The position numbers were made by a program, and so were the translations under genes. Below, piece by piece: positions 28,782 to 44,534 of a stretch of 46,832 bases of DNA. The notes under the pieces are model-generated. The model did no database searches and was not told the origin of the DNA. It saw only the letters and a list, made by a program, of their open reading frames with translations. Positions within the stretch are counted from its first letter, which is position 1. The number at the start of each line of letters is the position of its first letter. Source of the stretch: an uncultured Sulfurimonas sp. (GTDB lineage: Bacteria; Campylobacterota; Campylobacteria; Campylobacterales; Sulfurimonadaceae); NCBI GenBank assembly GCA_964358925.1, contig CAYHRD010000001.1, forward strand, positions 1-46,832. The letters run 5' to 3'.

Positions 28782-28830
28782 TGATATTAGTTATCAATTT
28801 AAGAAGATTATAAGATGATACTGATTATCA
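28782..28830. promoter_or_regulatory. Two Fur-like boxes upstream of the porin
   Basis: TGATATTAGTTATCA (28782-28796, 2 mismatches) and TGATACTGATTATCA (28816-28830, 1 mismatch). Confidence 0.7.
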
Positions 28831-28881: not shown

Positions 28882-30105
28882 ATGAATAAATCGCTAAAAA
28901 GCATAGTCTTAATTTCTACTTTGGCATATAGCACAACAACTATGGCAGATGAAGTTGTAAAAGCAGAACAAAATGAGATTTCAACTATTGGGCAGGTTTT
29001 TGAGGAAGGTAAAGTTTCAGGAAACATAAGATCTATGTATGCCGGATACAATATAAAGAAAGAGAATGAGAATAACATCTATGCTACCGCTCTTGGCGGT
29101 TATTTAAAGTATGAGACGGCAGAGTTAAACGGTTTTAGCGCGGCTGCGGCTTTTGCAACATCTCATGATATAGGTTTTGTCACAGGAGATAAAGGCGTAA
29201 AACAGAATGATGAGTTATCGTCGTCTAATGGTAAATATACGGTTTTAAGCGAAGCATATCTCAACTATAAATATGATGATTTTAATTTCCGTGCAGGTCG
29301 TCAAGTTATTGATACGCCGCTGGCAAACAGTGATGATATTAGAATGATTCAAAATACATTTGAAGCATATATAGCAACTTATGAAATTTCTAACTTTAAT
29401 TTTATGGCAGGTAAACTGCAAAAGTGGCAAGGTTATGATGCTGGATTGAATGATGGCTGGGTTAAAGCGGGAGAAGAGGGAACATATTTCGGCGGGGCAG
29501 TGTACTCCGATGATATGATGAAAGTAAACGGTTGGTACTACAACATTACCAAACTTACGAATGCCGCTTATTTTGATGCGACTCTTATGTATGAGATAAG
29601 CAGTGATGTGTCAGGCACCGGAGCCGTTCAATATTTAAATGAGAGTGAAATAAGCCTCAGCGGCACAAAAGCAGATATTTACGGAGCTAAGGCAGAATTG
29701 TCGGCTTACGGATTTACTCTAAGCGCGGCATATAACAAATCTCAAAAGAAGACCGGTAAAGCAAGTTTTAGCGGTTTTGGAGGCGGAGCGCTTTTTACGA
29801 GTATGGATACAATGATTTTGGATGAAATAGCTTCTGACCGCGATGCACGAGCAGCGGTGGGAGGCATAAGTTATGAAATTGACGATTTGACTCTCTCTTA
29901 TGCTTTTGGTGATTTTAAGGGTGAAGCAGACAGTCTTGGGCAAAAAGCTCATATCGTAGAGCAAGATATCTGCATAGCATATAATATTATTGAAGATAAG
30001 TTTAGCGTAAGTGCCGTTTATGCAATACAAGCGGATAGAGAGAACTCGGCAAAAACAGATAATGATTGGAATCGTCTTCAAATCAAAGCATCATATAATT
30101 TTTAA
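28882..30105 (+). CDS. Outer-membrane beta-barrel porin (OprD/Campylobacterota OMP-like)
   Basis: Sec signal peptide, LSEAYLNY, GRQVIDTPLA.SDDIRM, amphipathic strands, C-terminal YNF. Confidence 0.85.
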   Translation: MNKSLKSIVLISTLAYSTTTMADEVVKAEQNEISTIGQVFEEGKVSGNIRSMYAGYNIKKENENNIYATALGGYLKYETAELNGFSAAAAFATSHDIGFVTGDKGVKQNDELSSSNGKYTVLSEAYLNYKYDDFNFRAGRQVIDTPLANSDDIRMIQNTFEAYIATYEISNFNFMAGKLQKWQGYDAGLNDGWVKAGEEGTYFGGAVYSDDMMKVNGWYYNITKLTNAAYFDATLMYEISSDVSGTGAVQYLNESEISLSGTKADIYGAKAELSAYGFTLSAAYNKSQKKTGKASFSGFGGGALFTSMDTMILDEIASDRDARAAVGGISYEIDDLTLSYAFGDFKGEADSLGQKAHIVEQDICIAYNIIEDKFSVSAVYAIQADRENSAKTDNDWNRLQIKASYNF

Positions 30106-30236: not shown

Positions 30237-30303
30237 TGATAATAAATATCAAAATCATAAAAGATTAAGTTTTGCTTTGCTATTATATTGATAATAATTA
30301 TCA
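30237..30303 (+). promoter_or_regulatory. Promoter bracketed by two Fur-like boxes
   Basis: TGATAATAAATATCA (30237-30251), extended -10 TGCTATTAT, perfect TGATAATAATTATCA (30289-30303) next to RBS AAGGAG. Confidence 0.8.
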
Positions 30304-31762: not shown

Positions 31763-34700
31763 TTAAAAAACTTTAACTACTCTATTTAACTCGACAACAG
31801 GTGGGTTCGGCAGCTGCGGGTATGCTTTTTTTACCGCGTCCGTTACCCATTGCGGGTAGATTCTAAAGTTTAGTTTTACGGTAGCCGTTAGCGGATATTT
31901 TAGTGTTTTGCCATTAGGTATTTTGTAAGATTCGACTCGTCTCTCTCCTGCAGCAATTCTAGTATCGCTCAATAATTTTTCATATTTCCAAAAAAGAAGT
32001 CCCGCCGGTTTGCCCTCTTTGTCTGCAAATACTTTCATAAAAGGTCGTGCATCTTCGCCGAGATTTCCGTCATTTTTTAATTTTCCGCTCTCAAATACAA
32101 CTCTATCATCTGCGTCTTTTAAAGTAATATCAAGCCATAACTCTCTAAAATCGGCAACACCTGTCGGCAGATGATGTCCTGCCCCGACATTTGTTACTCC
32201 GACATCAATTTGAGACTCTTTGATATCTACATCAAGCTTTGCAGACATTTTTAAAAGTTGCAGTGTCTGATCTTCATTTTTTTTATTTTTCAGTCCTGAT
32301 AAAAAATGATTTGAGCCGGAAAAATAGTGAACTTTTATATCATCTTTTATTTTACCGCCATCGGTTGAGAGACCTTTTAAGGGAGAGAATTTACCGTTTT
32401 GCAGATTTGTCATATGGCAATCTATACAGCTTTTATGTTTACTTGGATTGTCCGGATTGTTAAATGATGACTTCTCCCACTCTTTAAAAGTAGAGACTAT
32501 CTCGCTTGCGTTACCCGGACTAAACTCGTCGTGACAAGAGGCACAATAAGCTGCATCTTTATATACAGGTTTCATGTAGCTCTCTTTATGAGCTTTTGGT
32601 TTTGAGTTTATAAATTTTTCACTAAGCCACTGTCCTGCTTCTGATTTACTATCTTCAAACGCATATTTTTCTCGCTCGGTTATATTTAAAGTATAAGATG
32701 CGTTTCCGCCCGCGTTTTCAACTTTTGTAATTCTATGGCAGGCAACGCAAGAGACGCCCTCTTCAAGTTTTGAGTTGCCGTGAATTTTCAACTCCTCTAT
32801 TAGGGTTTTTGCTCCTTTTTCAAAAAACTTTTCCATCGTATCCGTAGTTTTTTCTAAACCTGTCGTAACGGCGCTTGGATTGTGGCATCCCATACACCAT
32901 TTTCTAAACTCTTCACCCTCTGTTTTGGCTGCTAGATTTTCTAAAACCATATAGTAAGGGTTTGCTCCTGCTAAGTTTTTATGATTTGAATCAGCCCACT
33001 GGTCAAATATATCAGAGTGGCACGATTTGCACTTTGCGGAGTTTGTCCAATCTTCTGTATGATATTTTTCTACATTATCTTCAAGTTTTATCCAAGTAGA
33101 GAGATAACGCAAATTCTCTTTTGCGGTAACATAACGATGCAGATTTTGCATTTTATCTTTTAGCTCTGCATTCATATTGTCCGGATTTGCTAAAGCTATT
33201 TGTGCTTTTTTATCGGCTCCCATTCCGCCTTGCGTATCTCTGGCAATTCTTACATAATCAGCCAAAGGAGTTTTTGATACAAATCCGTTTAGATTGGAAT
33301 GTCCGATAGTTGCTTTTTTAGACTTATCAATTTGCGTATCTTTAAATAAAAAACGATTTGTAAAATTAAACCCCTCAAAATGACACGAATTGCAACTCAT
33401 CCAAAAATCTCCGCTCATAGGAGTTTGGCTGTTAAAATCCGAATTTGCATTGTTAAACAATCTCTTTCCCTCTCTCATCGCCAAGGGTAAAGGATCTTTT
33501 GTGACCAACTGGGAAAAAGACTCTTTTTGTAGTGTAATCTCTGCAAAAGGGTGACTTCCCCCGCTGTCTAAAAGCGTCATATCAAGAGTAGAAGCGTTTT
33601 GAACATATATGTTATTGTTATCGGGATGCACCAAAATAGCTTGAGGATTTGTGCCGTTTGGGTAATCTCTAAAAATTTGGGTTGCTTTTGCTCCTGTTCC
33701 GCTTACGGTCGCTTTTGTTCTATGTCTTTTTATTTTAGCGTTATCATTGCTTCTCCCTAAATTAAAAACTATGATATCTTCGCTTCCTGACAAGGTTACA
33801 AAAGCTTTTTCTCCATCGTTTGAAAAAGTCAAATCCCAAGGGTTTGATACAATCATGGTCTCATTTTTGTTGTTTAGTATATTTATGGATTTAAAAAGGT
33901 GTTTTCTTTTTTGCTCCTCTTCCCTTTCAGAACCTTTCTCTAGCGAGATAATTGAAACACTCGGGAAAACAGTTGACTGAAATTGAAAAGAGTGGTCAAA
34001 ATTCCATAAAACATGAACAAGCCAAGCTTCGCTGCCGTCAGGTTTAATCTCTATGTCGTCTAAAAGTCTCGGCGCACCTTGCGATACAAACTCGTCGCCA
34101 TCTTGAGTTGAATGCAGAGTTATAGTTTTTAGTTTTTTGAAACTTTTACTATCGTAAATTGTGACAATGCCGAGCATCGTATGCGTTACTAAAAGTCTTC
34201 CGTCATCCGTTAGCGCCATTCCTCGCGGAGTATCAAGAGTTTTAATAGTTTTTATAACACTGAAATTTTTATCGTCAATAACTAAAATTTCTTTATCTTC
34301 ATAAATTGTTACAAAGAAATATCTGTTTTTTTCATCATAAATTATCGCATGGGGTTTGTTATTCGTTTTTATCTCTTTAACAATTTTATTCTCTTTGTTT
34401 AAAAAATAGACTCTGTTTTTCATATAGTCGGTTACGCCGTAAATGGACTCATCGCTGTTAAAAGCTATCCTTCTTATATCGCTTCCCAAAACTTTTTCAA
34501 ATATTTTTTCGCCGCTTTTTGCGTTGATTTTAGAGACACTGCCGCCGTCTAGGTTTGCGCTGTAAATATATTGTTTGTCTTTTGTCAAATAGAGAGCCGA
34601 ACTGCTTGTGCTTGAATATGAGAGTGTCGGAATAAGCAGCGCGAAGAGAACTGCTGAAGCTAAAACCGCTTGTCTTTTAGCTCTATGCTTTCTCTTTTTT

Positions 34701-35110
34701 TGCTCTCTTTTGAGATTAATGTATGGAAAGTTGGTGTGATGCCATAAAAAGAAGAGTAGTAGAAATGAGCCGTATAAATGAAGATTGTATGAGTATATGC
34801 CGATTTCATCACCGCCTCTGTTGCCTATAAAAAACAGATACAACCCGCTAAGAGTTATAAGTAAAAGCACTATTCCTAAAAACATACCGTTCCTGTTATT
34901 TCTTTTTTTACCGATTATATTATTTCTATATTTAAAAACATGAATATTTACAAAAGGTATGATTAAAAAGGCAGAAACGGCGATTGAACCGATAATATGC
35001 AGGGCTTGCAGGACGGAGTAATATCCCCAGTCGATATTAAAAATATCCCATTGAACTATGCCCGTTACAAACATAAGCACGATTGAGAGTTGAATATAAA
35101 TAGATTTCAT
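31763..35110 (-). CDS. Membrane-anchored hexaheme cytochrome c fusion: His-bearing TM domain + YVTN/YncE-like beta-propeller + monoheme domain + c554/c552-like pentaheme domain
   Basis: Five hydrophobic N-terminal segments; propeller repeats (PHAI, PRGMAL, PWDLTF, PQAILV); CNSCH, CKSCH, CMGCH, CVACH, CASCH, CIDCH; C-terminal NVGAGHHLPTG. Confidence 0.88.
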   Translation of the reverse strand: MKSIYIQLSIVLMFVTGIVQWDIFNIDWGYYSVLQALHIIGSIAVSAFLIIPFVNIHVFKYRNNIIGKKRNNRNGMFLGIVLLLITLSGLYLFFIGNRGGDEIGIYSYNLHLYGSFLLLFFLWHHTNFPYINLKREQKKRKHRAKRQAVLASAVLFALLIPTLSYSSTSSSALYLTKDKQYIYSANLDGGSVSKINAKSGEKIFEKVLGSDIRRIAFNSDESIYGVTDYMKNRVYFLNKENKIVKEIKTNNKPHAIIYDEKNRYFFVTIYEDKEILVIDDKNFSVIKTIKTLDTPRGMALTDDGRLLVTHTMLGIVTIYDSKSFKKLKTITLHSTQDGDEFVSQGAPRLLDDIEIKPDGSEAWLVHVLWNFDHSFQFQSTVFPSVSIISLEKGSEREEEQKRKHLFKSINILNNKNETMIVSNPWDLTFSNDGEKAFVTLSGSEDIIVFNLGRSNDNAKIKRHRTKATVSGTGAKATQIFRDYPNGTNPQAILVHPDNNNIYVQNASTLDMTLLDSGGSHPFAEITLQKESFSQLVTKDPLPLAMREGKRLFNNANSDFNSQTPMSGDFWMSCNSCHFEGFNFTNRFLFKDTQIDKSKKATIGHSNLNGFVSKTPLADYVRIARDTQGGMGADKKAQIALANPDNMNAELKDKMQNLHRYVTAKENLRYLSTWIKLEDNVEKYHTEDWTNSAKCKSCHSDIFDQWADSNHKNLAGANPYYMVLENLAAKTEGEEFRKWCMGCHNPSAVTTGLEKTTDTMEKFFEKGAKTLIEELKIHGNSKLEEGVSCVACHRITKVENAGGNASYTLNITEREKYAFEDSKSEAGQWLSEKFINSKPKAHKESYMKPVYKDAAYCASCHDEFSPGNASEIVSTFKEWEKSSFNNPDNPSKHKSCIDCHMTNLQNGKFSPLKGLSTDGGKIKDDIKVHYFSGSNHFLSGLKNKKNEDQTLQLLKMSAKLDVDIKESQIDVGVTNVGAGHHLPTGVADFRELWLDITLKDADDRVVFESGKLKNDGNLGEDARPFMKVFADKEGKPAGLLFWKYEKLLSDTRIAAGERRVESYKIPNGKTLKYPLTATVKLNFRIYPQWVTDAVKKAYPQLPNPPVVELNRVVKVF

Positions 35111-35180
35111 TTTTTAAACCTTGACAAAATAATAATATAAATAAATTATATAAAAAAAATCGTAAGAAATTGCTTAATAA

Positions 35181-35195
35181 TGAAAACCAATATCA
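35181..35195. promoter_or_regulatory. Weak Fur-like box upstream of the 1115-aa cytochrome gene
   Basis: TGAAAACCAATATCA, 3 mismatches; about 30 nt upstream of a minus-strand TATAAT. Confidence 0.45.
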
Positions 35196-35199
35196 AATA

Positions 35200-35227
35200 C
35201 ACTAAAGAGAATAAGTTCTCTTTAGTG
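35200..35227 (-). terminator. Stem-loop terminator after the 674-aa gene
   Basis: Perfect 12-bp inverted repeat CACTAAAGAGAA-TAAG-TTCTCTTTAGTG, 7 nt past the stop. Confidence 0.7.
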
Positions 35228-35234
35228 CGTAATA

Positions 35235-37259
35235 TCAATTGGATAATTTAACTTTTCCCGCCATAGTCGGAGCAGTTCCGAATTTTCCGCCTGCTTTGTT
35301 AATAGGAGGAACATTGTCTTCGTCGTTATTGCTTGTTGTCATTGAAGCTGTTTCATATTCGCCCGAATCCAGTAGCCACTCTGCGAGTTGAGCGCCGTCA
35401 TTTACGGAATTTCCGTTTATAACCAATTGAAACCATCTTGTAAATCTCTCGGTTAAGTTTTTAAGTTCAAGAACCGGCTTTTTCTCAAAACCTGTATTCT
35501 TTAAATTGCTAATAGCACTTCTTAGTCCGCCGCTAACTGCTCCGATTGTATAAGGCGTGTACTCTTTTGACGCATCCACATATGTGCCGATTTTTTTATC
35601 ATACATATTTTTTTCTATAGAAATCATCAACTCTCTTGCTTCTTGTCTGTATTTGTTGTTTTTGGTCGCAAGATATGCCGCCGTGAGTCCTCTAATAACC
35701 GCAAACTGTGTTCCTAAATCCGCTCCCTCTTTTGAACCGTTTGTTACATTGTAAACGGTTGCATATAAGCCGTTTTTCTCTTTTGCTTTGCCGATTAGAA
35801 AATCAGCCTGAGTTTTAATCAGCTCAAGTGCTTTTTTACCTTGCTCAGTCTCTAAAGATTGTGTACTCTTGCTTGAACCGTAACCGACGGGAAGTGCATC
35901 TACTGCTCTTTGAAAAATTCTTAGTGCTTCTATGGAGTATGCCGCATCGTAAATTGTAACTGTATCGCTTTGTTTGCCGTCATATCTATCGATAAAAGTT
36001 CCTGCCTTTTTATCAAAGTGAAGTTTTGAAATATTTTCAAACATTAAATTAGCGATATTTGCAGAAACAGAAAATGCGTCATCGGATTTAATATCATTTT
36101 TTCTGTTGCCGTCGATATTTACTTTCGGAGCGCTTTTAAAAGGTTTTCCGTCAAACACCGCTAAAAATGAAGGGTTTTGACTTTTATTGGAGGTTCTTTG
36201 ATCCGAATATGCATAAAACTCGCTGATTGGCCAAAGCACCTGCCAAGTATCTCTAAGAGAGGAGTGACCCTCTTTAACTTTTAAAGAAGCAATAGATTTG
36301 GTACTGTTTGCAGTTCCTTCTTCCACTGCTACACTGTTTGCAAACCATATAGGCTTGCTTGCATCATAAGAAGGGTCAAACTTCGCACCTAAATTTTTAC
36401 CGTCAAAGCCTAGTTTCTCTTGCATATACAATATACTTTCCCACGCTAATTCCGTTAAAATTACCCCGTTTACGCCGTCCGCACTTGAAACTCCAAGAGC
36501 ATGTTTTCCGTCAGAATCCATAGACGCACTTGTAGCTTCTACCTCTTCATCATTCTCTATTTTATGCATACCGCCAAGAAAATCTTGCGCCCACATTATG
36601 TCTTTTAAAAGTGCTGCGCCGAGTGAAGCAGGATTTAGCGTTTTATCCATTTCGGACTCAACCCAAGAGAGAGTTTTATAATCTCTCAAATAAGCAGGTA
36701 TCGAAGTTTTTACTTTGCTCTCTTTACCGTGTTTAAATACCACAACCTCATCGTTATTTACAATTGTCATATCAATTTTTTGTGCAAATTCAGGGATTCC
36801 TGAGGTGTATGGCAGTGCTGTCGGATGCATATTTAACGGTATGATTTCCGGGTCATTGCCGGTTGCTTTTGCAAACTCTATAAATCTTTTTGCCAAAGAA
36901 GCCATATCCCCGCCTCTTGAAGCGTTTAAAAGACCGTTTACCAGATGCGGTCCCATTTTTGACTGATAATTTAAAGCATACATCGCTTCTTCAGAGTATT
37001 CATAGCTCTCAATTCCGGCTGTATAATCAAACTCCGTCGGTTTATTAATCGTATTTGGATTTAGCGTGTCTAAATCCAGCCCAAGTGACTCTGCGAGAGG
37101 TTCTCCGGATAATTCAAACTCGGTATAAGCAAACATTGCGCCTGCCGTATAAAACCTTTTATCCAGAACCTCCGCTTTTGTATTAGAAAATGGCTTTGAA
37201 GCATATAATGATGTTATAGCCAAAGAAGCAATCAGTGACAATTTTACTATCTTATTCAT
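35235..37259 (-). CDS. Secreted hypothetical protein (674 aa) with Glu/Tyr-rich N-terminal motifs and alpha/alpha-toroid-like C-terminal repeats
   Basis: Signal peptide MNKIVKLSLIASLAITSLYA; RBS AAGGA; YTEFELSGE, IESYEYSEE; RGLTAAYLATKNNKYRQEA; no Cys. Confidence 0.85.
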   Translation of the reverse strand: MNKIVKLSLIASLAITSLYASKPFSNTKAEVLDKRFYTAGAMFAYTEFELSGEPLAESLGLDLDTLNPNTINKPTEFDYTAGIESYEYSEEAMYALNYQSKMGPHLVNGLLNASRGGDMASLAKRFIEFAKATGNDPEIIPLNMHPTALPYTSGIPEFAQKIDMTIVNNDEVVVFKHGKESKVKTSIPAYLRDYKTLSWVESEMDKTLNPASLGAALLKDIMWAQDFLGGMHKIENDEEVEATSASMDSDGKHALGVSSADGVNGVILTELAWESILYMQEKLGFDGKNLGAKFDPSYDASKPIWFANSVAVEEGTANSTKSIASLKVKEGHSSLRDTWQVLWPISEFYAYSDQRTSNKSQNPSFLAVFDGKPFKSAPKVNIDGNRKNDIKSDDAFSVSANIANLMFENISKLHFDKKAGTFIDRYDGKQSDTVTIYDAAYSIEALRIFQRAVDALPVGYGSSKSTQSLETEQGKKALELIKTQADFLIGKAKEKNGLYATVYNVTNGSKEGADLGTQFAVIRGLTAAYLATKNNKYRQEARELMISIEKNMYDKKIGTYVDASKEYTPYTIGAVSGGLRSAISNLKNTGFEKKPVLELKNLTERFTRWFQLVINGNSVNDGAQLAEWLLDSGEYETASMTTSNNDEDNVPPINKAGGKFGTAPTMAGKVKLSN

Positions 37260-37279
37260 CTAAATTCCTTATTTTGATT

Positions 37280-37345
37280 TGAAAACGATTATCAAAATTA
37301 TAAATAAAGAAACTTAATGTATGTTTAAAATGATAATTATTATCA
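37280..37345 (-). promoter_or_regulatory. Promoter bracketed by two Fur-like boxes
   Basis: Perfect TGATAATTATTATCA (37331-37345), minus-strand TATAAT, TGAAAACGATTATCA (37280-37294) near the RBS. Confidence 0.8.
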
Positions 37346-37360
37346 GAATAATTTAGTTTT

Positions 37361-37508
37361 GAGATTGCCGCGCTGCGCTCGCAATGACGCAAGAGAGAGA
37401 TTGCCGCGTCGTTTTACTCCTCGCAGTGACGGTTACTTATCATCGAACACATTCTTTCGTCATTGTGAACATTCTTCCGTCATTGCGAACGAAGTGAAGC
37501 AATCTATG
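37361..37508. repeat. REP-like palindromic repeat cluster, family A
   Basis: GAGATTGCCGCGCTGCGCTCGCAATGAC, GAGATTGCCGCGTC..CTCGCAGTGAC, partial CGTCATTGTGAAC, inverted CGTCATTGCGAACGAAGTGAAGCAATCT. Confidence 0.88.
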
Positions 37509-37533
37509 TTTAATCAGAGTATTCTATTGAAAT

Positions 37534-38754
37534 TTAGTTTTTCAGCAAATACAGTGTTTTTTCGCCTACAAAACGCCCTTTATAAATCTCATAAGCTGCT
37601 TCTTTTGGTTTTTGAGCCGTGATGATGTAAACCGTGTTTTTTTCATTAAGATACTTTGCGCTGTCACGGTAATAGTTGTCTACGACTCTGTAATTATAAA
37701 CTGTTCTTAGTATTTCGATACTTCTGTTTGCTATGATTATTCTATCCGTTAGGACTATGTTTTGAGCTATCTGTTCAATGGGAGAAATTTTTTCATCATA
37801 TTTTAAAATATGAAATATATTAAAAGAGAGTATCAAAAATAGTAAGATATTTGCTTTTTTTAAATATGTTGCAAGAAAAATATTGGCTATAAAAACTAAA
37901 GGTATTATATGTCTTAGGCTATCCGGATTTTGGGCAAAGAGTATCCAGCAAAAGTAGAAAACAAAAATAAGATACAGAAGCGGGAACTTTTTTTCTTGTT
38001 TAAAAGGTAGAAACAGCAAAAATATATAGGGTGTATTTATAAATGAAAAGATATTGTCAAACCAAGAAAGTTCGCTGTTTTGCCCTCGTCCCCATAGTGA
38101 AAAATGCCCCTCTATAAACCTCACACCCTCATAAAAATAGAGCATACCGTTGTTTATAAATATAAATAGCAAAAATAAAGTGGAGGTTAAAAAAAACCAA
38201 ACTAAGATGGGTTTTAGGGAATCTTTTTTAAACAGGTAAAGGTATATAAATCCCGCAATAAAAAAAATAAAATAGGATGGTCTTGAAAAAAATGATACGG
38301 CAAAAATGATACCGCTTAGTCTCTGTTTTTTTAATTCAAGAAAATATAGTCCTAAAAAGAAAAAGAGCAGACCGACACTTTCGCTTAACATGCACAATGA
38401 GAGGTTCATTAGATAAGGTGTAGTAATAGAAAGTGCGAAGACTATAAAAGCCGTCTTTTCATCTTGAAGTTTTTTTGTATATAAAAAAAGAACAAAGGGT
38501 ATCAGTATCGCACTAAGAGCAGTGAGAATGAAGAGAGACTGTTTGGCATCATCTATAAAAAAATTGATGATTTTGCCAAAAATAACAACAGAAGGGTACC
38601 CTGGAAAATGTGGAGAAAAATCTATAACGCTAAAGTTTTTTATGCCCTCTGCCAAAAAAAGCGAATCGTCATTAAAATATGAAGCGGGATAGGTAAAAAT
38701 AAAAAGGGCATAAACAAAAGTACTTATACCGACAACCGCTTTGTAGCCGCTCAT
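37534..38754 (-). CDS. Polytopic membrane protein, GT-C-fold glycosyltransferase-like
   Basis: About 10-11 TM segments; first loop NDDS followed by PHFPGYP (HPPGY-like); LSES; SRP; RHIIPL. Confidence 0.7.
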   Translation of the reverse strand: MSGYKAVVGISTFVYALFIFTYPASYFNDDSLFLAEGIKNFSVIDFSPHFPGYPSVVIFGKIINFFIDDAKQSLFILTALSAILIPFVLFLYTKKLQDEKTAFIVFALSITTPYLMNLSLCMLSESVGLLFFFLGLYFLELKKQRLSGIIFAVSFFSRPSYFIFFIAGFIYLYLFKKDSLKPILVWFFLTSTLFLLFIFINNGMLYFYEGVRFIEGHFSLWGRGQNSELSWFDNIFSFINTPYIFLLFLPFKQEKKFPLLYLIFVFYFCWILFAQNPDSLRHIIPLVFIANIFLATYLKKANILLFLILSFNIFHILKYDEKISPIEQIAQNIVLTDRIIIANRSIEILRTVYNYRVVDNYYRDSAKYLNEKNTVYIITAQKPKEAAYEIYKGRFVGEKTLYLLKN

Positions 38755-39309
38755 TTAGATTGATTTTAAAATATTGACTATAACTTGTTGATTTTTTTTG
38801 TACTCTTGCTCATCGGCAGGTTTCGCTCCCACTCCAAAAAGACCGGGATTTCCGATAGAATCCGCACATTTTTTTATGGCTGCCTTAAGCGTTTCGTTTT
38901 TCTCTTTATCCAAACTAACCGATAAAATTTTGTAAAACTTATCAACCTTTGCTAACATCACTTTTGCCACATTAAACTCTTTTATATTTTCTAAACCGCC
39001 TTGTATTCTTCTTTGGATTTCACAAGCGATGGAAATATCAAGCCATCTGACAATCTGCTTTTTGTCATGTTTTAAAATTGATGTTTTTAAACCCTCAAAG
39101 AGCAGAGTGTTAAACTCGTCATTTAAGTATCGATAGGTCTGCTCATACTCTTTAAATACCGTTTCCGCCATTTTAAAATCATCACCGTTTACGGCTCTTG
39201 TAATTGCCTCTTTTGCATCTATTGTCGGCTCTTTGCCTGCTGCTGCATAAGAGTAGGCATTTAGAGTAGAAGCTATAAAAGCAGCAATAAGTAGTAGTAA
39301 AAATTTCAT
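38755..39309 (-). CDS. Secreted alpha-helical hypothetical protein (184 aa)
   Basis: Signal peptide ending LNA; mature N-terminus YSYAAAGKEP; NPGLFGVG; its TAA abuts the next ATG. Confidence 0.8.
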   Translation of the reverse strand: MKFLLLLIAAFIASTLNAYSYAAAGKEPTIDAKEAITRAVNGDDFKMAETVFKEYEQTYRYLNDEFNTLLFEGLKTSILKHDKKQIVRWLDISIACEIQRRIQGGLENIKEFNVAKVMLAKVDKFYKILSVSLDKEKNETLKAAIKKCADSIGNPGLFGVGAKPADEQEYKKNQQVIVNILKSI

Positions 39310-39379
39310 GTTTTTTCCTTTTTTTATTTTATTCGTAATTATATTTTTCTTATTAAGAATTTAAGTGGAGTAATAATTA

Positions 39380-40066
39380 TTAAAACCAGAATCTCACTCC
39401 AGTTACTGCATATGCTTCATCTAATGATGAAATATCATTTGTATTTCCAAAATTTTTACTCCATTGGATTCCTATATAAGGTGCAAATTCTCTTGTAAAT
39501 TCATATCTCAATCTGGCATCTAAGGTGATATTTGAAAAGCCACTTCCAATAGCCATTTCTTCATTGTTTTTTGTATAAGCAGATATTTGAGCACTTGGAC
39601 TTAATATAAGTTTTTGTGTCAACAATGCATCATATTCTGCTTCAATTCTTAACCCAATATTTCCATCCTCTCCTATTAAAAGTACGGTTCTTGTTTCAAA
39701 GAAATATTTAGCTAAGCCTTGCAATCCTATAATACCCCATGTTTGATGAGCTTTTTCATTTTTATCATAATCAATACCAACTTGTACATCCCAAAAAGGA
39801 AAAACTGCTCTTGAATAAACTAATTGATTTTCGCTTTGAGCAGATTTATTTTTAACTTTTTCCCCTTCCGAATAAATATAAATCTTATTTATATCGTATC
39901 CGGCATATCCATATACATTCCATGCAGTTGCTTTTTCATCGCTAAATTGATATTCAAGTTTATCAACAACTAAAGAACTTCTAAAAACATCGCCTCCATC
40001 CTCCATTGAAAAACTATTTGTTACAAAAAAGCCTACTAATGATAATGCTAATACTATTTTTTTCAT
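39380..40066 (-). CDS. copB: Copper resistance protein B (outer membrane)
   Basis: VDKLEYQ, PFWDVQVG, GLQGLA.YFFE, YDALLTQKLILSP, RLRYEFTREFAPYIG, GVRFWF. Confidence 0.92.
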   Translation of the reverse strand: MKKIVLALSLVGFFVTNSFSMEDGGDVFRSSLVVDKLEYQFSDEKATAWNVYGYAGYDINKIYIYSEGEKVKNKSAQSENQLVYSRAVFPFWDVQVGIDYDKNEKAHQTWGIIGLQGLAKYFFETRTVLLIGEDGNIGLRIEAEYDALLTQKLILSPSAQISAYTKNNEEMAIGSGFSNITLDARLRYEFTREFAPYIGIQWSKNFGNTNDISSLDEAYAVTGVRFWF

Positions 40067-40078
40067 AATAAAACTCCT

Positions 40079-41842
40079 TTAAGATACTATTACTTTTCTA
40101 AACATATCTGTCATATGATAAAGCAAGTGACAATGATAAGCCCAAGAACCTTTTGCATCCACATTTACCCTAAAACTTATTTTTGAACCCGGTTGCACAA
40201 TGATTGTGTGTTTTCTTGGTAAATAATTGTCATCACCTGTTTCTAAATCACTCCACATACCGTGTAAATGCATAGGGTGATTCATCATAGTGTCATTAAT
40301 ATATGTTATTCTTAATCTCTCTCCATATTTGAATTCTAAAGGTTTGGCATCCTTGTAAGCTATACCATTTATAGACCACATATATCTTTGCATATTTCCT
40401 GTAAGTCTTAAAATTATCTCTCTATCAGGATATTTATCATGTGTGGTAGGAGTTAATGATTTCAAATCTGCATATGTTAAAACTTTTCTACCATTATTTC
40501 TAAGTCCTACACCGGGGTCATTAAGTCTATATTGTGGATCCATAGCTACTGTATCTATTTGAACACCTGCTGCTTCTTCAAGTCTATTAATTGGTATTTC
40601 TTTTTTTTGATTATTAATTCCTGACATATCATGTCCCATTTTTGAATGTTCTATAGGCGCATTTATTGATTCTGATTTGCTCATCGCAGACATATCATGT
40701 TCTGAACTACTCATATCACTTGTTCCACCCATACCCATATCAGCATGTGTTAAAATCGGAAAAGGATCCATTTGTGGAGTTTGTGCAATTACTTTTTCAT
40801 CAAAAGTTAATGCTCCAAGCGCATAGCCACTTCTATCAATACTTTGAGCAAAAATAGCATAAGCTTTATTTGCTTCCGGCTCTACTATTACATCATAAGT
40901 TTCAGCGACACCCATCCTAAACTCATCAACACTTACGGGTTGAATATTATTTCCATCAGCTGCAATTACTGTTATCTTAAGACCAGGAATTCTTACATCA
41001 AAAAATGTCATAGCAGCACTATTTATGAATCTTAATCTAATTTTTTCTCCATTTTTAAATAGTGCTTTAAAGCCTGTAGCCGGATTTTCTCCATTCATTA
41101 AGTATGTATATGTATATCCTGATACATCTGAAATATCCCTATCTGTCATTTTCATTTCATTCCACATTTTTCTTTCATTAAATGCTTCAAAAAAACCTTT
41201 TTCTTTTACTTCATCAAAGAAATCTCCAACAGTTCGTTGTTTAAAATTATAATAAGAAGAAGAGAGTTTTATTTTTCTGTAAACTGAAGATGGTTTTTCA
41301 TCTGACCAATCTGATAATGAAATTACATATTCTCTATCGTATTCATATGGGTCTTTTACTTTTGGCTCGATTATAATTGCGCCAAAAATACCGGTCTGTT
41401 CTTGAAAACCAGAGTGTGAATGATACCAATAAGTTCCACTTTGAACTATTGGAAAGCTATATGTAAATGTTTCTCCAGGTTTAATACCACTAAAACTAAT
41501 TCCAGGAACGCCATCCATAGCAGCAGGTAAAATAATTCCATGCCAATGAATAGATGTATCTTCATTAAGATTATTAGTTACATTTATCGTAACAGTATCT
41601 CCTTCTTTCCATCTAAGGATTGGACCACTTAGCATTCCATTTATTGTTGTAGCGATACTTGGATTACCTGTAATATTTACATAAGTATTTTCAATACTTA
41701 AATTAAATATATTTCCACTTAACTCATTAGTTTTAATACGAGTTGATATGTTAGAATTCGAACTTAGGCTTGACGGCGTAGAAGCAATTATACTTGTTGC
41801 CAAAATACCTTTTACAAATGTTCTTCTATCTATATTATTCAT
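40079..41842 (-). CDS. copA: Tat-exported copper-resistance multicopper oxidase (CopA/PcoA family)
   Basis: Tat signal DRRTFVKG; HWHG, WYHSH, HPMHLHG, HCHLLYH; Met/His-rich linker. Confidence 0.95.
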   Translation of the reverse strand: MNNIDRRTFVKGILATSIIASTPSSLSSNSNISTRIKTNELSGNIFNLSIENTYVNITGNPSIATTINGMLSGPILRWKEGDTVTINVTNNLNEDTSIHWHGIILPAAMDGVPGISFSGIKPGETFTYSFPIVQSGTYWYHSHSGFQEQTGIFGAIIIEPKVKDPYEYDREYVISLSDWSDEKPSSVYRKIKLSSSYYNFKQRTVGDFFDEVKEKGFFEAFNERKMWNEMKMTDRDISDVSGYTYTYLMNGENPATGFKALFKNGEKIRLRFINSAAMTFFDVRIPGLKITVIAADGNNIQPVSVDEFRMGVAETYDVIVEPEANKAYAIFAQSIDRSGYALGALTFDEKVIAQTPQMDPFPILTHADMGMGGTSDMSSSEHDMSAMSKSESINAPIEHSKMGHDMSGINNQKKEIPINRLEEAAGVQIDTVAMDPQYRLNDPGVGLRNNGRKVLTYADLKSLTPTTHDKYPDREIILRLTGNMQRYMWSINGIAYKDAKPLEFKYGERLRITYINDTMMNHPMHLHGMWSDLETGDDNYLPRKHTIIVQPGSKISFRVNVDAKGSWAYHCHLLYHMTDMFRKVIVS

Positions 41843-41910: not shown

Positions 41911-43305
41911 TCAAGCGATGCTTTTTGTCTCTATAACTGTTTTTTCATTTCTATGATTGTAAATTTTCTCTTTTGAAATAGACGAATCTCCGAGAATCTT
42001 TTGAGCCGCCATCAGCCCCGTCTCCATAGCGGTATCAAGAAATATGTATCTAAATGTTCCTTGTCTTCCCGCCATCACAAGATTGTTAAATCTATTTAGG
42101 TATTTGATAGTGTCATCCCTTTTTATATCGTAATTTATATCCATTAAGGTATAAGCATGCTGGGCACTAAAAGAGAAGCTTTCGATTATCTTATCTTCAA
42201 TATCAAAACCTAGTTTTTTTAAATCACATATTACGATTTTTAAAAGCTCCTCTTTATCCATATTCCAAATTTTGTCATTTTTGTTGCAGGGAATCTCAAG
42301 CATTATGGAACTTTTGCCTTTTGGAGACATAAACCCCGACCTTCTTTTTGGTTCTTGTATCCTTGTGGGTAAAAGTTCATAATCACTTACATACTGCCAA
42401 GTGTGAGGTGAAAAATCTTCAATGTCTAAACCGATACATAAAAATCTAAGGCTTCTGAATTTCAAACCGCTCTCATATCCCATTTTTAAAGACATTTCGT
42501 TAAGCGGCATGGTTGAAATGATGTTGTCGGCTTTAAAACTGTTATTTTGCGTATGAACGGCTGTAATGGAGTTGTTCGTATATTCAAAATTCGTTACTTC
42601 TGAATCAAGAAATATTTTCCCGCCCAAAGCCTCAAACCTTTGTGCCATCTTCTTTGGAAGTTCTCCAAATCCGTATTTGGGATATCTATAGCTTTTGGCA
42701 TAAGTTCTCACCGTTTTTTTATTTTTAAACAGCAGCTTTTTTGCAACATCTTTTAAATCAAGCAGTGAAATCCTCTGTCCTGCCCAGTCGGCGCTCAAGT
42801 CTTTTGGTTCTATTCCCCATAGTTTTTTTGTATATGGAGCAAAAAAATTCTTATACAGAGTTGCTCCAAACCTTGATGTTATCCATGCCTCAAAACTTTT
42901 ATCGTCAGGCTTTACTAATTTTATTAAAATTTTCAAGGTATCGAAAAGTGCGCCAAAAAGAAGTTTTAAAGGAGCTGTTTTTAGAAGATTTTTCAAATTT
43001 AGCGGATACTCGTAAACTCTGTTTTGGTGAAGTATGACGGAGCTTCTCTGGGCAATTAAAAGATTATCGCCTAAAATCTCTTCCACAAAAGAAAGAAGAG
43101 CCTCATTGTTTGTAATAAATCTGTGTCCGCCGTAGTCAAATCTATATTTGTCATCTCCTATCTTTAAAACCTCGGTTCTGCATTGCCCGCCGACACTTGA
43201 CTCTTTTTCTAAAAGTATTACACTCTTTTTCTCTTCTAAAAGTTTTATACCAGCCATCAGCCCGGCAACTCCGCCTCCGATAATCAAAACATCGCTATTT
43301 TGCAT
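41911..43305 (-). CDS. FAD-dependent oxidoreductase, UDP-galactopyranose mutase/HemY-like family (464 aa)
   Basis: GGGVAG Rossmann motif, GGQCRT, FDYGGHRF, YTKKLWG, YPKYGFG, GRQGTFRY; ATG 43305 overlaps the FTR1 stop. Confidence 0.85.
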   Translation of the reverse strand: MQNSDVLIIGGGVAGLMAGIKLLEEKKSVILLEKESSVGGQCRTEVLKIGDDKYRFDYGGHRFITNNEALLSFVEEILGDNLLIAQRSSVILHQNRVYEYPLNLKNLLKTAPLKLLFGALFDTLKILIKLVKPDDKSFEAWITSRFGATLYKNFFAPYTKKLWGIEPKDLSADWAGQRISLLDLKDVAKKLLFKNKKTVRTYAKSYRYPKYGFGELPKKMAQRFEALGGKIFLDSEVTNFEYTNNSITAVHTQNNSFKADNIISTMPLNEMSLKMGYESGLKFRSLRFLCIGLDIEDFSPHTWQYVSDYELLPTRIQEPKRRSGFMSPKGKSSIMLEIPCNKNDKIWNMDKEELLKIVICDLKKLGFDIEDKIIESFSFSAQHAYTLMDINYDIKRDDTIKYLNRFNNLVMAGRQGTFRYIFLDTAMETGLMAAQKILGDSSISKEKIYNHRNEKTVIETKSIA

Positions 43306-44110
43306 TTGAGTATGCTCTCTTCCATAATATAAGCGCGCTTGACATATAGAGAATCCAAGAGAGCAGATGTAGCAGCGAAGGAGAGGAGTTGTACCCAAAG
43401 AGCGCTCTTAAAAAAGTTCCGATTAAACCTCTGTCATCCAAGATATGCGATATATCGTAAACGCTTGACATAAGGACAGGAGCCAATCCGCTTGCCTGCA
43501 TCATAGAGACGGCACTTCCGAAAAGCCCACCCGCTATTATCAAAATCAGAAGCGAGGTGTATTTGAAAAATGCTTTTATAGGGATGTTTTTTACGCCCCT
43601 CATAAGAGCATAAACCAAAATTACAGATACGATAATCCCCAAAGAAGCACCGATAAGTCCCTCTTCTGCGCTTATATTTTCTCCTATGCTAAGTGAGGAG
43701 AAAAAGAGTACGCTCTCAAATCCTTCTCTTAAAACCGCCAAAAATGCTAAAAACACCATACCGGCTATATTGCCCGCCGTTACTAAACGCTCCAGATTTT
43801 CTTCTATCTCACCTTTTATCTGTTTTGATTGGTTCGACATCCAAAAAACCATATAAGATAAAACAACCGTTGCAAAAAGCAGAATAAAAATCATTAAATA
43901 GTGCTGATAAAGTTCATTTTCTATTCCGTAAATCACGACTTGAAAGATATATGCAATGATGAGCGAAACTGCAATCCCGATAATTACGCCCAAATAGATA
44001 TATTTGTCATATTGTTTTACTTGAAGCCGACTTAAATAAGAGAGAATAATCCCTACTATTAAAAAAGCCTCTAACCCTTCTCTCAGCGTTATTAAAAAAC
44101 TTGCTAACAT
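43295..44110 (-). CDS. FTR1/EfeU-family high-affinity iron permease
   Basis: Seven TM segments with twin REGLE and REGFE motifs; ALFGY. Confidence 0.95.
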   Translation of the reverse strand: MLASFLITLREGLEAFLIVGIILSYLSRLQVKQYDKYIYLGVIIGIAVSLIIAYIFQVVIYGIENELYQHYLMIFILLFATVVLSYMVFWMSNQSKQIKGEIEENLERLVTAGNIAGMVFLAFLAVLREGFESVLFFSSLSIGENISAEEGLIGASLGIIVSVILVYALMRGVKNIPIKAFFKYTSLLILIIAGGLFGSAVSMMQASGLAPVLMSSVYDISHILDDRGLIGTFLRALFGYNSSPSLLHLLSWILYMSSALILWKRAYSNAK

Positions 44111-44123
44111 TCTATTCCTTGCA

Positions 44124-44150
44124 GATAATTATAATAATCGTTATCATTAT
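44124..44150. promoter_or_regulatory. Fur-like box in the divergent FTR1/feoA intergenic region
   Basis: TAATAATCGTTATCA (44132-44146, 2 mismatches) within GATAAT-like hexamers, overlapping a minus-strand TATAAT. Confidence 0.7.
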
Positions 44151-44279
44151 AGTTTATTAAAAATAAAAAGTTTCTTAAATTTGCATACGAATTGAAAAAT
44201 TATTAAATAAATCTATGCCAAATTAAACAATAATCTAAATTTCTCTATAATTAGGTACTTGAAAATAAGCAGAGAAAAT

Positions 44280-44534
44280 ATGTCTGATAAAATAGATAAT
44301 AATAAAATAAAAAAATTAAGCGATTGTAAAAAAGCGTGTATAGTGAAAATTACTAAATTAAATGCCGATTCAGAGCTTAAGCGAAGACTTATATCTTTTG
44401 GAATTATGAAAGATGCGGTTGTTGAAGTGCTTGAACTTGCTCCCGCAAAAAGTACGATAGAGATAAAAGTCGGCAAAATGAGAATAGCTCTTCGAGCCCA
44501 AGAGGCTGATTTGATAGAGGTTTCAAAAATATGA
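44280..44534 (+). CDS. feoA: Ferrous iron transport protein A
   Basis: LKRRLISFGI, AP, IALRAQEA.LIEV; overlaps the feoB start. Confidence 0.92.
   Translation: MSDKIDNNKIKKLSDCKKACIVKITKLNADSELKRRLISFGIMKDAVVEVLELAPAKSTIEIKVGKMRIALRAQEADLIEVSKI

Follow-up and report, generated by a model that had tools for sequence, protein, structure and literature searches.

Introduction

Several periplasmic proteins are known as partners of FTR1-type permeases, namely P19/FtrA, EfeO/EfeM of the M75 family, and FetP, and FtrB/FtrD and EfeB act as electron partners. During the analysis of a 46,832-nucleotide stretch of DNA from an uncultured Sulfurimonas sp. (GCA_964358925.1, contig CAYHRD010000001.1, positions 1 to 46,832, hereafter the window), a gene for an exported protein of 674 residues, designated T674, was recognized. 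It is tentatively proposed here to serve in redox-based iron acquisition as the periplasmic component, made in excess and under the control of Fur. Like P19/FtrA, EfeO/EfeM, and FetP, T674 is exported, is encoded with an FTR1 permease under Fur-type control and beside a redox partner, and is expressed from its own promoter or placed ahead of the membrane parts. It differs from them in its fold, and the sequences are unrelated. Its redox partner is a cytochrome b/propeller/hexahaem protein, unlike FtrB/FtrD or EfeB, and FTR1 is not found in 34 of the 80 loci compared. These are the best 80 of 251 stretches that encode a T674 relative, among 322 candidate stretches from species-representative genomes.

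T674 has no match to the P19/FtrA and EfeO-M75 families (PF10634 and PF09375), and its alpha-barrel fold is distinct from both the beta sandwich and the M75 bundle. It has no Cu-oxidase match such as a Fet3-like multicopper ferroxidase would give, and contains no Cys and 7 His among its 674 residues. The multicopper oxidase of the window is a gene separate from T674. Literature searches, whose reach did not extend to preprint supplements, returned no description of the T674 cluster or of the fold, partners, or function of the family; a preprint on a hexahaem protein of Tenderiales proved unrelated, and no papers were found with DUF4856 or with six accession numbers.

Iron-starvation induction of the Aeromonas ortholog

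The closest described protein is AHA_2481/ORF01830 of Aeromonas hydrophila, which belongs to the same family as T674 (about 50% identity, 666 amino acids, with a signal peptide), is induced 10- to 12-fold by dipyridyl, and is found both in the supernatant and in the osmotic-shock fraction. In strain LP-2, ORF01830 was reported as a "hypothetical protein" homologous to AHA_2481, with a signal peptide and a gene spanning 2001 bp (PMC6387970). Its identification in the culture supernatant rested on 93 peptides; with 2,2'-dipyridyl, iTRAQ measurements showed increases of 10.2- and 9.8-fold, and western blots gave no detectable signal when the chelator was absent (PMC6387970). AHA_2481 (UniProt A0KL44, 666 amino acids, 70.6 kDa) was quantified by dimethyl labelling in the osmotic-shock envelope fraction; the ratios with dipyridyl versus without it were 9.0, 11.4, and 9.5 (normalised median, 12.3) (PMC4957856). 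In the parts of the two papers available, the protein is treated as a vaccine candidate with a modest virulence effect, and no fold, partner, or function is given (PMC6387970, PMC4957856).

The assignment to the T674 family was made through the cloning primers. Over its gene-specific part, the sense primer is identical (19 of 19 bases) to the beginning of the T674 ortholog in A. finlandensis, where MRKTVL is encoded. The antisense primer, with one mismatch, lies at the 3' end of a gene in 2 of 41 Aeromonas genomes, and the product of this gene is 50% identical to T674 over residues 168–673 (E = 3e-174). The Aeromonas ortholog is a solo gene about 70 kb away from the cytochrome cluster, whereas T674 of the window lies inside a cluster; its solitary position is compatible with its being transcribed independently. 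The T674 family is thus shown to be induced by iron shortage, with Fur as the probable mediator. The abundance of the product, expected in the first-pass annotation of this DNA, receives indirect support from the 93 peptides of the Aeromonas supernatant.

Other candidates from Aeromonas were rejected. The iron-induced "uncharacterized protein" and two cytochromes of the A. salmonicida proteome (PMC9503180) turned out to be a 34-kDa lipoprotein, NrfA, and a solute-binding protein, none of the T674 family. The gene for ORF02943, the other top iron-induced hypothetical protein of A. hydrophila, is located far away from T674 as well as from the cytochrome. FTR1 and cytochrome terms were not found in the supplement of PMC4957856.

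Promoter and probable terminator of the T674 gene

The features of the gene are as follows.

35235..37259, minus strand: T674 coding sequence including the stop codon, with an ATG start, 674 amino acids, an exported Cys-free (alpha/alpha)6-barrel protein
37200..37259, minus strand: predicted Sec signal peptide, residues 1–20, with cleavage between LYA and SK, judged by eye
37266..37270, minus strand: ribosome-binding site AAGGA, kept as A(A/G)GGA in alignment A4
37280..37294, directly downstream of the -10 hexamer: Fur box 2, TGATAATCGTTTTCA, 12/14, i.e., two mismatches
37297..37302, minus strand: likely -10 hexamer TATAAT, read from the sequence, a TAyAAT column in most of the 12 loci of A4
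37331..37345, about 72–86 nt before the ATG: Fur box 1, a perfect 7-1-7 palindrome TGATAAT-n-ATTATCA with no mismatch
35199..35228, minus strand: terminator-like hairpin of 13 pairs with a loop of 4, followed by a T-rich tail, beginning 6 nt past the T674 stop
35176..35194, between the hairpin and the cytochrome gene: Fur-like box scoring 15/19 against the 19-bp consensus

The first-pass annotation had described a large Cys-free secreted protein with two Fur boxes in its promoter and a 12-bp hairpin after its stop. This observation is confirmed with corrections to the strand, the stem length, and the position of the hairpin. The gene is on the minus strand, and the hairpin, which is present, has a stem of 13 pairs and lies just outside the interval given in that annotation. 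The N-terminus, MNKIVKLSLIASLAITSLYA followed by SK, reads by eye as a typical Sec signal, and similar hydrophobic N-termini are seen in all 30 aligned relatives. No Cys occurs beyond residue 25 in 71 of the 78 family members examined.

Fur box 1 (TGATAATtATTATCA) matches the 7-1-7 consensus TGATAATNATTATCA perfectly and scores 16/19 against the 19-bp consensus, and there are only three such positions among the 46,814 scored. In the window, 7-1-7 matches with at most two mismatches number 10 against 0.91 expected, and none of 100 shuffles reaches 10. The two boxes bracket the TATAAT hexamer, which is absent from the promoter scan listing because the scan demands a -35 match. The layout with two boxes aligns column by column in 12 Campylobacterota loci (the window and 11 others), always in the order of box 1, a TTAAG element, TAyAAT, box 2 immediately after it, and the ribosome site. 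Box 2 itself is found, identical or as a variant of one to three bases, in 9 of the 11 other loci.

A wider survey covered 360 bases around the start codon in 77 loci from three classes, with genome G+C contents from 25 to 62% and with the other upstream regions of the same loci as controls. A Fur-like site of at least 14/19 was found upstream of T674 in 51 of the 77 loci, versus 37 of 259 control regions. The host genome has one Fur gene. With a Fur box overlapping the promoter, as in members of the Fur regulon, the T674 gene is likely repressed by Fur. A look-up of RNA runs for positions 31763–39400 of the window returned none.

The hairpin downstream of T674 has a folding energy of -16.9 kcal/mol and the tail TTGGTTTT. 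A terminator scan of the 3-kb region at T674 gave 2 sites versus 1.9 expected; the count alone is not above chance, and the claim of a terminator therefore rests on the comparative data. Hairpins of -8 kcal/mol or better, located within 100 nt of the stop codon and with at least 5 T in the next 8 bases, were found downstream of T674 in 49 of 76 loci versus 28 of 150 other genes. Counting any hairpin at -10 kcal/mol proved too loose to be informative (74 of 76 T674 loci versus 73 of 120 other genes) and was abandoned. The earlier view of a separate, iron-repressed transcription unit is supported by the promoter kept in 12 loci, the Fur-like boxes in 51 of 77, the hairpins in 49 of 76, and the solitary, induced ortholog of Aeromonas.

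A MITE-like insert is located at 37350–37540, between the stop codon of the neighbouring membrane-protein gene and the T674 promoter. Its terminal inverted repeats are 33 nt long (37362–37394 and 37473–37505, 82% complementary), and the 10-bp direct repeat AATTTAGTTT (37350–59 and 37531–40) flanks them. One further copy of a similar TCGCAATGACG...CGTCATTGCGA palindrome is present in the genome, and like hairpins are observed 3' of T674 in two Sulfurimonas loci.

Fold, family, and candidate site

No family of Pfam or NCBIfam was matched by T674, and a single-sequence search of the PDB sequences gave no match at E <= 10. None of 30 family members reached a glycoside hydrolase, lyase, or epimerase model among the curated families at E <= 10. 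In the protein atlas, T674 fell only into its own unnamed clusters; the next matches, at 0.78, are leads only. The label DUF4856, attached to one relative (P0090) in one source, was rejected, as neither P0090 nor 29 other members give such a match.

The family comprises 454 proteins at E <= 0.001 among 7996 candidates scored, and 147 matches were found among 1.84 billion cluster representatives. The best 120 relatives are all at least 51% identical to T674 and similar in length, and they are named "hypothetical" except for two stray labels. In alignment A1, with 30 sequences from Campylobacterota, Gammaproteobacteria, and Alphaproteobacteria, the mean column identity is 67%.

The AlphaFold model of T674, built with 87 sequences, has a pLDDT of 93.5 and a pTM of 0.93. 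In this model, the entire mature protein (residues ~27–674) forms one (alpha/alpha)6-type barrel with beta-hairpin insertions at 166–188 and 309–330. Foldseek returned 67 matches at E <= 0.001. The structural matches have Z scores of 18–21 over 300–339 residues and span residues 27–674. Representative entries, compared with the T674 model, are as follows.

5x32, D-mannose isomerase: Z 21.4, 336 residues aligned, rmsd 2.6
4xuv, GH105 enzyme: Z 21.0, 300 residues aligned, rmsd 3.0
1nc5, YteR: Z 20.4, 308 residues aligned, rmsd 2.8
GH76 enzymes, several entries: Z 18–19

A comparison of the family profile with PDB entries gave weak similarity, located in the repeated hairpins, to cellobiose 2-epimerase (E = 1.5e-8) and to GH76 (about 2e-6). 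The glycosidase fold named as one option in the first-pass annotation is therefore supported by both AlphaFold and Foldseek; its remark that the later helical repeats resemble those of (alpha/alpha)6 barrels is correct and understated, as the whole mature protein is a barrel. T674 has the fold of the six-hairpin barrel superfamily (AGE, GH76, GH88, and GH105) and falls outside the curated families by sequence. It shares the (alpha/alpha)6 barrel with the AGE epimerases/isomerases (cellobiose 2-epimerase, D-mannose isomerase, and YihS) and with GH105, GH88, and GH76, and it differs from these enzymes in being nearly twice as long, in the beta-hairpin insertions, in an acidic N-terminal segment free of basic residues, and in its regulation by iron.

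The catalytic residues are a His pair in AGE, Asp-Asp in GH76, and a catalytic Asp in GH88/105. H232, H414, and several Asp/Glu are conserved in T674, and they are not equatable with these residues because the structural alignments fall in two registers (27–590 and 71–674).

The motifs YTEFELSGE, IESYEYSEE, MGPHL, and EWLLDSGE, singled out in the first-pass annotation, are all present in T674, and their columns are invariant or nearly so in 30 relatives from the three classes. Lack of conservation of the acidic motifs had been named beforehand as a finding that would speak against a carboxylate site; the motifs are conserved, and several are specific to the clade. The residues kept down to relatives of 23–29% identity are E47, E84, Y86, Y88, D193, K219, W223, H232, and D370, and further N409, H414, Q518, R580, E627, E634, D646, and D648. 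The clade of the window departs from the distant relatives at the following positions of T674.

Position 45: A in distant relatives, Y in the clade of the window
Position 49: F/Y/Q in distant relatives, E in the clade of the window
Position 78: G/S/T in distant relatives, D in the clade of the window
Position 87: W (or E) in distant relatives, E in the clade of the window
Position 90: R/K in distant relatives, E in the clade of the window
Position 91: Y in distant relatives, E in the clade of the window

The median composition of segment 44–100 in 72 close relatives is 13 acidic residues and 0 basic ones, versus 3–12 acidic and 1–6 basic residues in 15 distant relatives. These substitutions suggest that the candidate pocket has shifted from a neutral or anionic ligand to a cation.

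A Pfam scan of 26 relatives showed a type IX secretion tail in four and a cytochrome c domain at the C-terminus in four; three belong to giant surface proteins.

Gene neighbourhood and distribution

The genes that recur beside T674 are as follows.

31763..35110, minus strand: CYT, 1115 amino acids, with Pfam/NCBIfam matches, the most constant neighbour of T674
37534..38754, minus strand: PMT-like polytopic membrane protein, 406 amino acids, with a marginal PMT_2 (GT-C-like) match
38755..39309, minus strand: S184, an exported helical protein of 184 amino acids, the predicted docking partner of T674
41911..43398, minus strand: FAD-dependent oxidoreductase (amine-oxidase/UDP-galactopyranose-mutase-like), GLF match with E = 2.2e-8
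43295..44110, minus strand: FTR1-family iron permease, PF03239 with E = 4.9e-48, with both REGxE motifs, which are conserved

CYT consists of a His-rich N-terminal domain with 4–5 transmembrane segments, a beta-propeller, and six CXXCH haem motifs. The match of the PMT-like protein to PF13231 (E = 4.7e-6) has 27.3 bits against a cut-off of 26.1, and three relatives give no match. The true start of the FAD-dependent oxidoreductase is probably the ATG at 43305.

In the 80 loci, CYT was found in 69, the PMT-like gene in 61, the FAD gene in 60, S184 in 55, FTR1 in 46, and CopA and CopB in none. The gene orders in the three groups are as follows.

Campylobacterota: FTR1-FAD-S184-PMT, T674, CYT
Alphaproteobacteria: T674, CYT-FTR1-FAD-S184-PMT
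Gammaproteobacteria: T674, c6-FTR1-FAD-S184-PMT-CYT

CYT, or its split-off membrane domain, lies directly 3' of T674 in all three orders. The split-off form, c6 of Gammaproteobacteria, is a four-helix membrane protein of 160 residues with conserved His, which corresponds to the N-terminal domain of CYT of the window; its matches to DUF4405 and cytochrome b561 in Pfam are below threshold. Some genomes have T674 and the cytochrome alone, and a whole-genome search of five genomes found CYT in all five, FTR1 in two, and S184 in one. The genes flanking the cluster vary from genus to genus. By the hairpin measure applied to T674 (-8 kcal/mol or better), terminator-like hairpins follow FTR1 in 0 of 30 loci, the PMT-like gene in 1, the FAD gene in 2, c6 in 3, CYT in 10, and S184 in 16, each of 30.

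The T674 family has a patchy distribution in Campylobacterota, Gammaproteobacteria, and Alphaproteobacteria. It is rare among relatives of the host, being found in 2 of 151 genomes of the order, the host genome included, and in none of 6 other genomes of the genus. In a FastTree phylogeny of 78 sequences, the Campylobacterota sequences group together (support 100), with the window beside a Sulfurimonas metagenome-assembled genome (MAG). The sequence from a Halopseudomonas aestusnigri MAG (locus L050) is placed among Alphaproteobacteria next to a Rhodospirillales MAG (support 100), which points to a recent transfer or a binning error. No member of the P19 or EfeO (M75) families was found in the host genome, which is 90% complete; a search there for an AGE family member, made without a control locus, also gave none. 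One Terasakiella chromosome carries the entire cluster twice (loci L022 and L023), about 500 kb apart, with identical T674 and the same flanking genes, a ferritin gene included.

Between the FAD gene and S184, at 39380–41842, the window has genes for CopB and a CopA-like multicopper oxidase, without counterparts in any of the 80 loci. This pair looks like a local insertion; a multicopper oxidase adjoining an FTR1 permease recalls the yeast Fet3-Ftr1 pair.

Overlapping Fur-like boxes of up to 15/19 are located at 44121–44151, between the FTR1 gene and the divergent FeoB gene (44531–46669). FeoB is near the cluster in 5 of the 80 loci, and ferritin genes are also near some loci. A porin gene of the Opr family at 28882–30105 has two Fur-like boxes ahead of it (28782–28830, with one and two mismatches), and this porin, relatives of which adjoin T674 in the two Sulfurimonas loci L007 and L014, could admit the substrate through the outer membrane. 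Another perfect 7-1-7 Fur box (30289–30303), together with a box with one mismatch (30237–30251), precedes a DUF2325 gene; a small open reading frame and an EAL-domain gene come after it. Iron may control c-di-GMP turnover at these genes.

S184 and its predicted complex with T674

S184 is modelled (pLDDT 92.9) as a helical bundle, for which no specific match was found: the best Foldseek match is EfeO with E = 0.42, and structural comparison (VIA) gave a best Z of 8.6 to a generic four-helix bundle. At this level, common to such bundles, S184 is like the four-helix sensor domains of the TorT-TorS, QseG-QseE, and XylFII-LytS pairs, with a Z within the chance range for helical bundles; it differs from them in having no membrane or kinase part.

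The loop GNPGLFGVG of S184 is invariant, and its mature N-terminus AYSYAAAGKEP (residues 18–28) is invariant or nearly so in 33 sequences. Residues 19–23 are modelled as disordered (pLDDT below 50), and only K26 of this segment is in the predicted T674 interface. At the mature N-terminus, modification or contact with the neighbouring membrane protein may take place.

The complex prediction with mature T674 and mature S184 had a score of 0.74, and the best of three controls had 0.01. That mark is reached by 116 of 157 solved complexes and by 2 of 215 mismatched pairs, counts that hold just roughly because own alignments were used. The contact agreement between runs was at least 69%, and the partner pLDDT was at least 88. 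On the S184 side, the predicted interface consists of the invariant GNPGLFGVG loop (155–161) and residues 111–117. On the T674 side, it consists of residues 107, 119–127, 137–144, 165–171, and 189–193, away from the acidic segment 44–100. The model supports docking of S184 on T674.

Proposed role of T674 and alternatives

It is quite possible, and is put forward tentatively, that T674 acts in the periplasm as a component of a module for redox iron acquisition, with its expression under Fur control and in excess. It would hold iron or an iron complex in its acidified barrel pocket, carry S184 on its side, and serve the cytochrome. Under iron shortage, Fur would leave both boxes bracketing the -10 hexamer. 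T674 would then be strongly transcribed, and most transcripts would end at the hairpin, giving T674 in excess of the cytochrome. The ancestral pocket would have lost Arg/Lys and gained Glu, Asp, and Tyr in this clade, and the predicted pocket would therefore bind a cation, probably Fe, and not an acidic sugar. Electron transfer between the iron bound to T674 and the membrane would be the task of the cytochrome, and the product would enter the cell via FTR1 where it is present, or via Feo.

Several points weigh against this proposal. No known iron-binding family or motif was found in T674 with Pfam and NCBIfam, nor in 30 members. Its fold and its conserved set of Trp, Tyr, Asp, Glu, and His are those of carbohydrate enzymes, and those distant relatives that carry type IX secretion tails resemble secreted enzymes acting on glycans. 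Some of the conserved acids (N644-x-D646-x-D648, E627, and E634) may be merely a structural calcium loop; N644-x-D646-x-D648-N-V resembles the DxDxDG calcium loop motif. The partner backed by the complex prediction, which was run with T674 and S184 only, is S184 and not the cytochrome. In the four genomes without S184, 13, 11, 7, and 13 of the 19 interface residues of T674 match the consensus, at overall T674 identities of 0.64, 0.66, 0.60, and 0.69, and the interface positions are not clearly relaxed there. FTR1 is missing from 34 of the 80 loci; the system is therefore not built around that permease. Deletion of ORF01830 shifted the LD50 in zebrafish just from 0.81 to 2.9 x 10^4 (PMC6387970).

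The main rival, a somewhat unlikely one, is that T674 is a true periplasmic carbohydrate-active enzyme or glycan binder of the hydrolase, lyase, or epimerase type. Its substrate could be a glycan made with the UDP-galactopyranose-mutase-like flavoprotein and the GT-C-like membrane protein, or an iron-laden acidic polysaccharide from which T674 frees iron. The Z scores of 18–21 to AGE epimerases/isomerases, GH105, GH88, and GH76 and the profile matches to cellobiose 2-epimerase and GH76 argue for such an activity, but none of the 30 members reaches a corresponding family model, and the two alignment registers leave no catalytic residue equated. The conserved Trp/Tyr and Asp/Glu/His resemble sugar pockets, but Arg/Lys90 of the distant relatives, a candidate binder of a carboxylate, is Glu in T674. 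The type IX secretion tails in 4 of 26 relatives and the GLF match of the flavoprotein (E = 2.2e-8) are consistent with glycan chemistry; the PMT_2 match of the other neighbour is at the cut-off and absent in three relatives, and the regulation is by iron, not by sugar.

A more specific form of the iron proposal is unlikely: T674 and S184 would together be a new two-protein periplasmic iron-capture device, in which the sugar-acid pocket of a glycosidase-fold barrel, refitted with carboxylates and tyrosines, would hold iron, exchange electrons with the hexahaem cytochrome, and thus constitute a cofactor-free ferroxidase or ferrireductase site. As part of the same claim, the two proteins would replace Fet3, P19, or EfeO and feed FTR1 or Feo.

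Less likely still, T674 could have no substrate of its own and act together with S184 as a scaffold or assembly factor, stabilising or maturing the periplasmic part of either the cytochrome or the membrane protein. The predicted complex with S184, the constant adjacency to the cytochrome, and the very high conservation across the whole surface, with a mean column identity of 67% across three classes, would suit such a role. The polar residues kept down to relatives of 23–29% identity are, however, typical of a ligand site. The distant relatives occur in other contexts, as fusions and secreted forms, the Aeromonas ortholog is encoded alone and strongly made, and the terminator of its own suggests that T674 is made in excess of its partners.

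That T674 is not related to iron at all, with the Fur-like sequences as AT-rich chance matches and the neighbourhood as a general redox island, is close to refuted: AT-rich palindromes are frequent in a genome of 36% G+C, and the -10 kcal/mol hairpin measure is also met by 73 of 120 other genes, but the 10 Fur matches exceed all of the shuffles, Fur-like boxes persist in genomes of 40–60% G+C, the ortholog is induced by iron chelation in two independent proteomes, and FTR1, FeoB, and ferritin genes are near many loci.

Significance

Fur-regulated non-siderophore iron uptake with a periplasmic helper is already known; new for that role would be the fold of the helper, S184, and the cytochrome. 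FTR1-type and other non-siderophore iron uptake is poorly understood in marine and sediment bacteria. Through this analysis, a widespread protein that has appeared in print just as a "hypothetical" protein of a fish pathogen, induced by iron starvation and considered as a vaccine candidate, gains a fold, conserved partners, and a predicted direct partner. Were T674 a glycan enzyme, iron starvation would be tied to the chemistry of the envelope or of polysaccharides. Should T674 bind iron, metal acquisition would have its first six-hairpin barrel, and the question of who hands iron to the permease would have a third answer.

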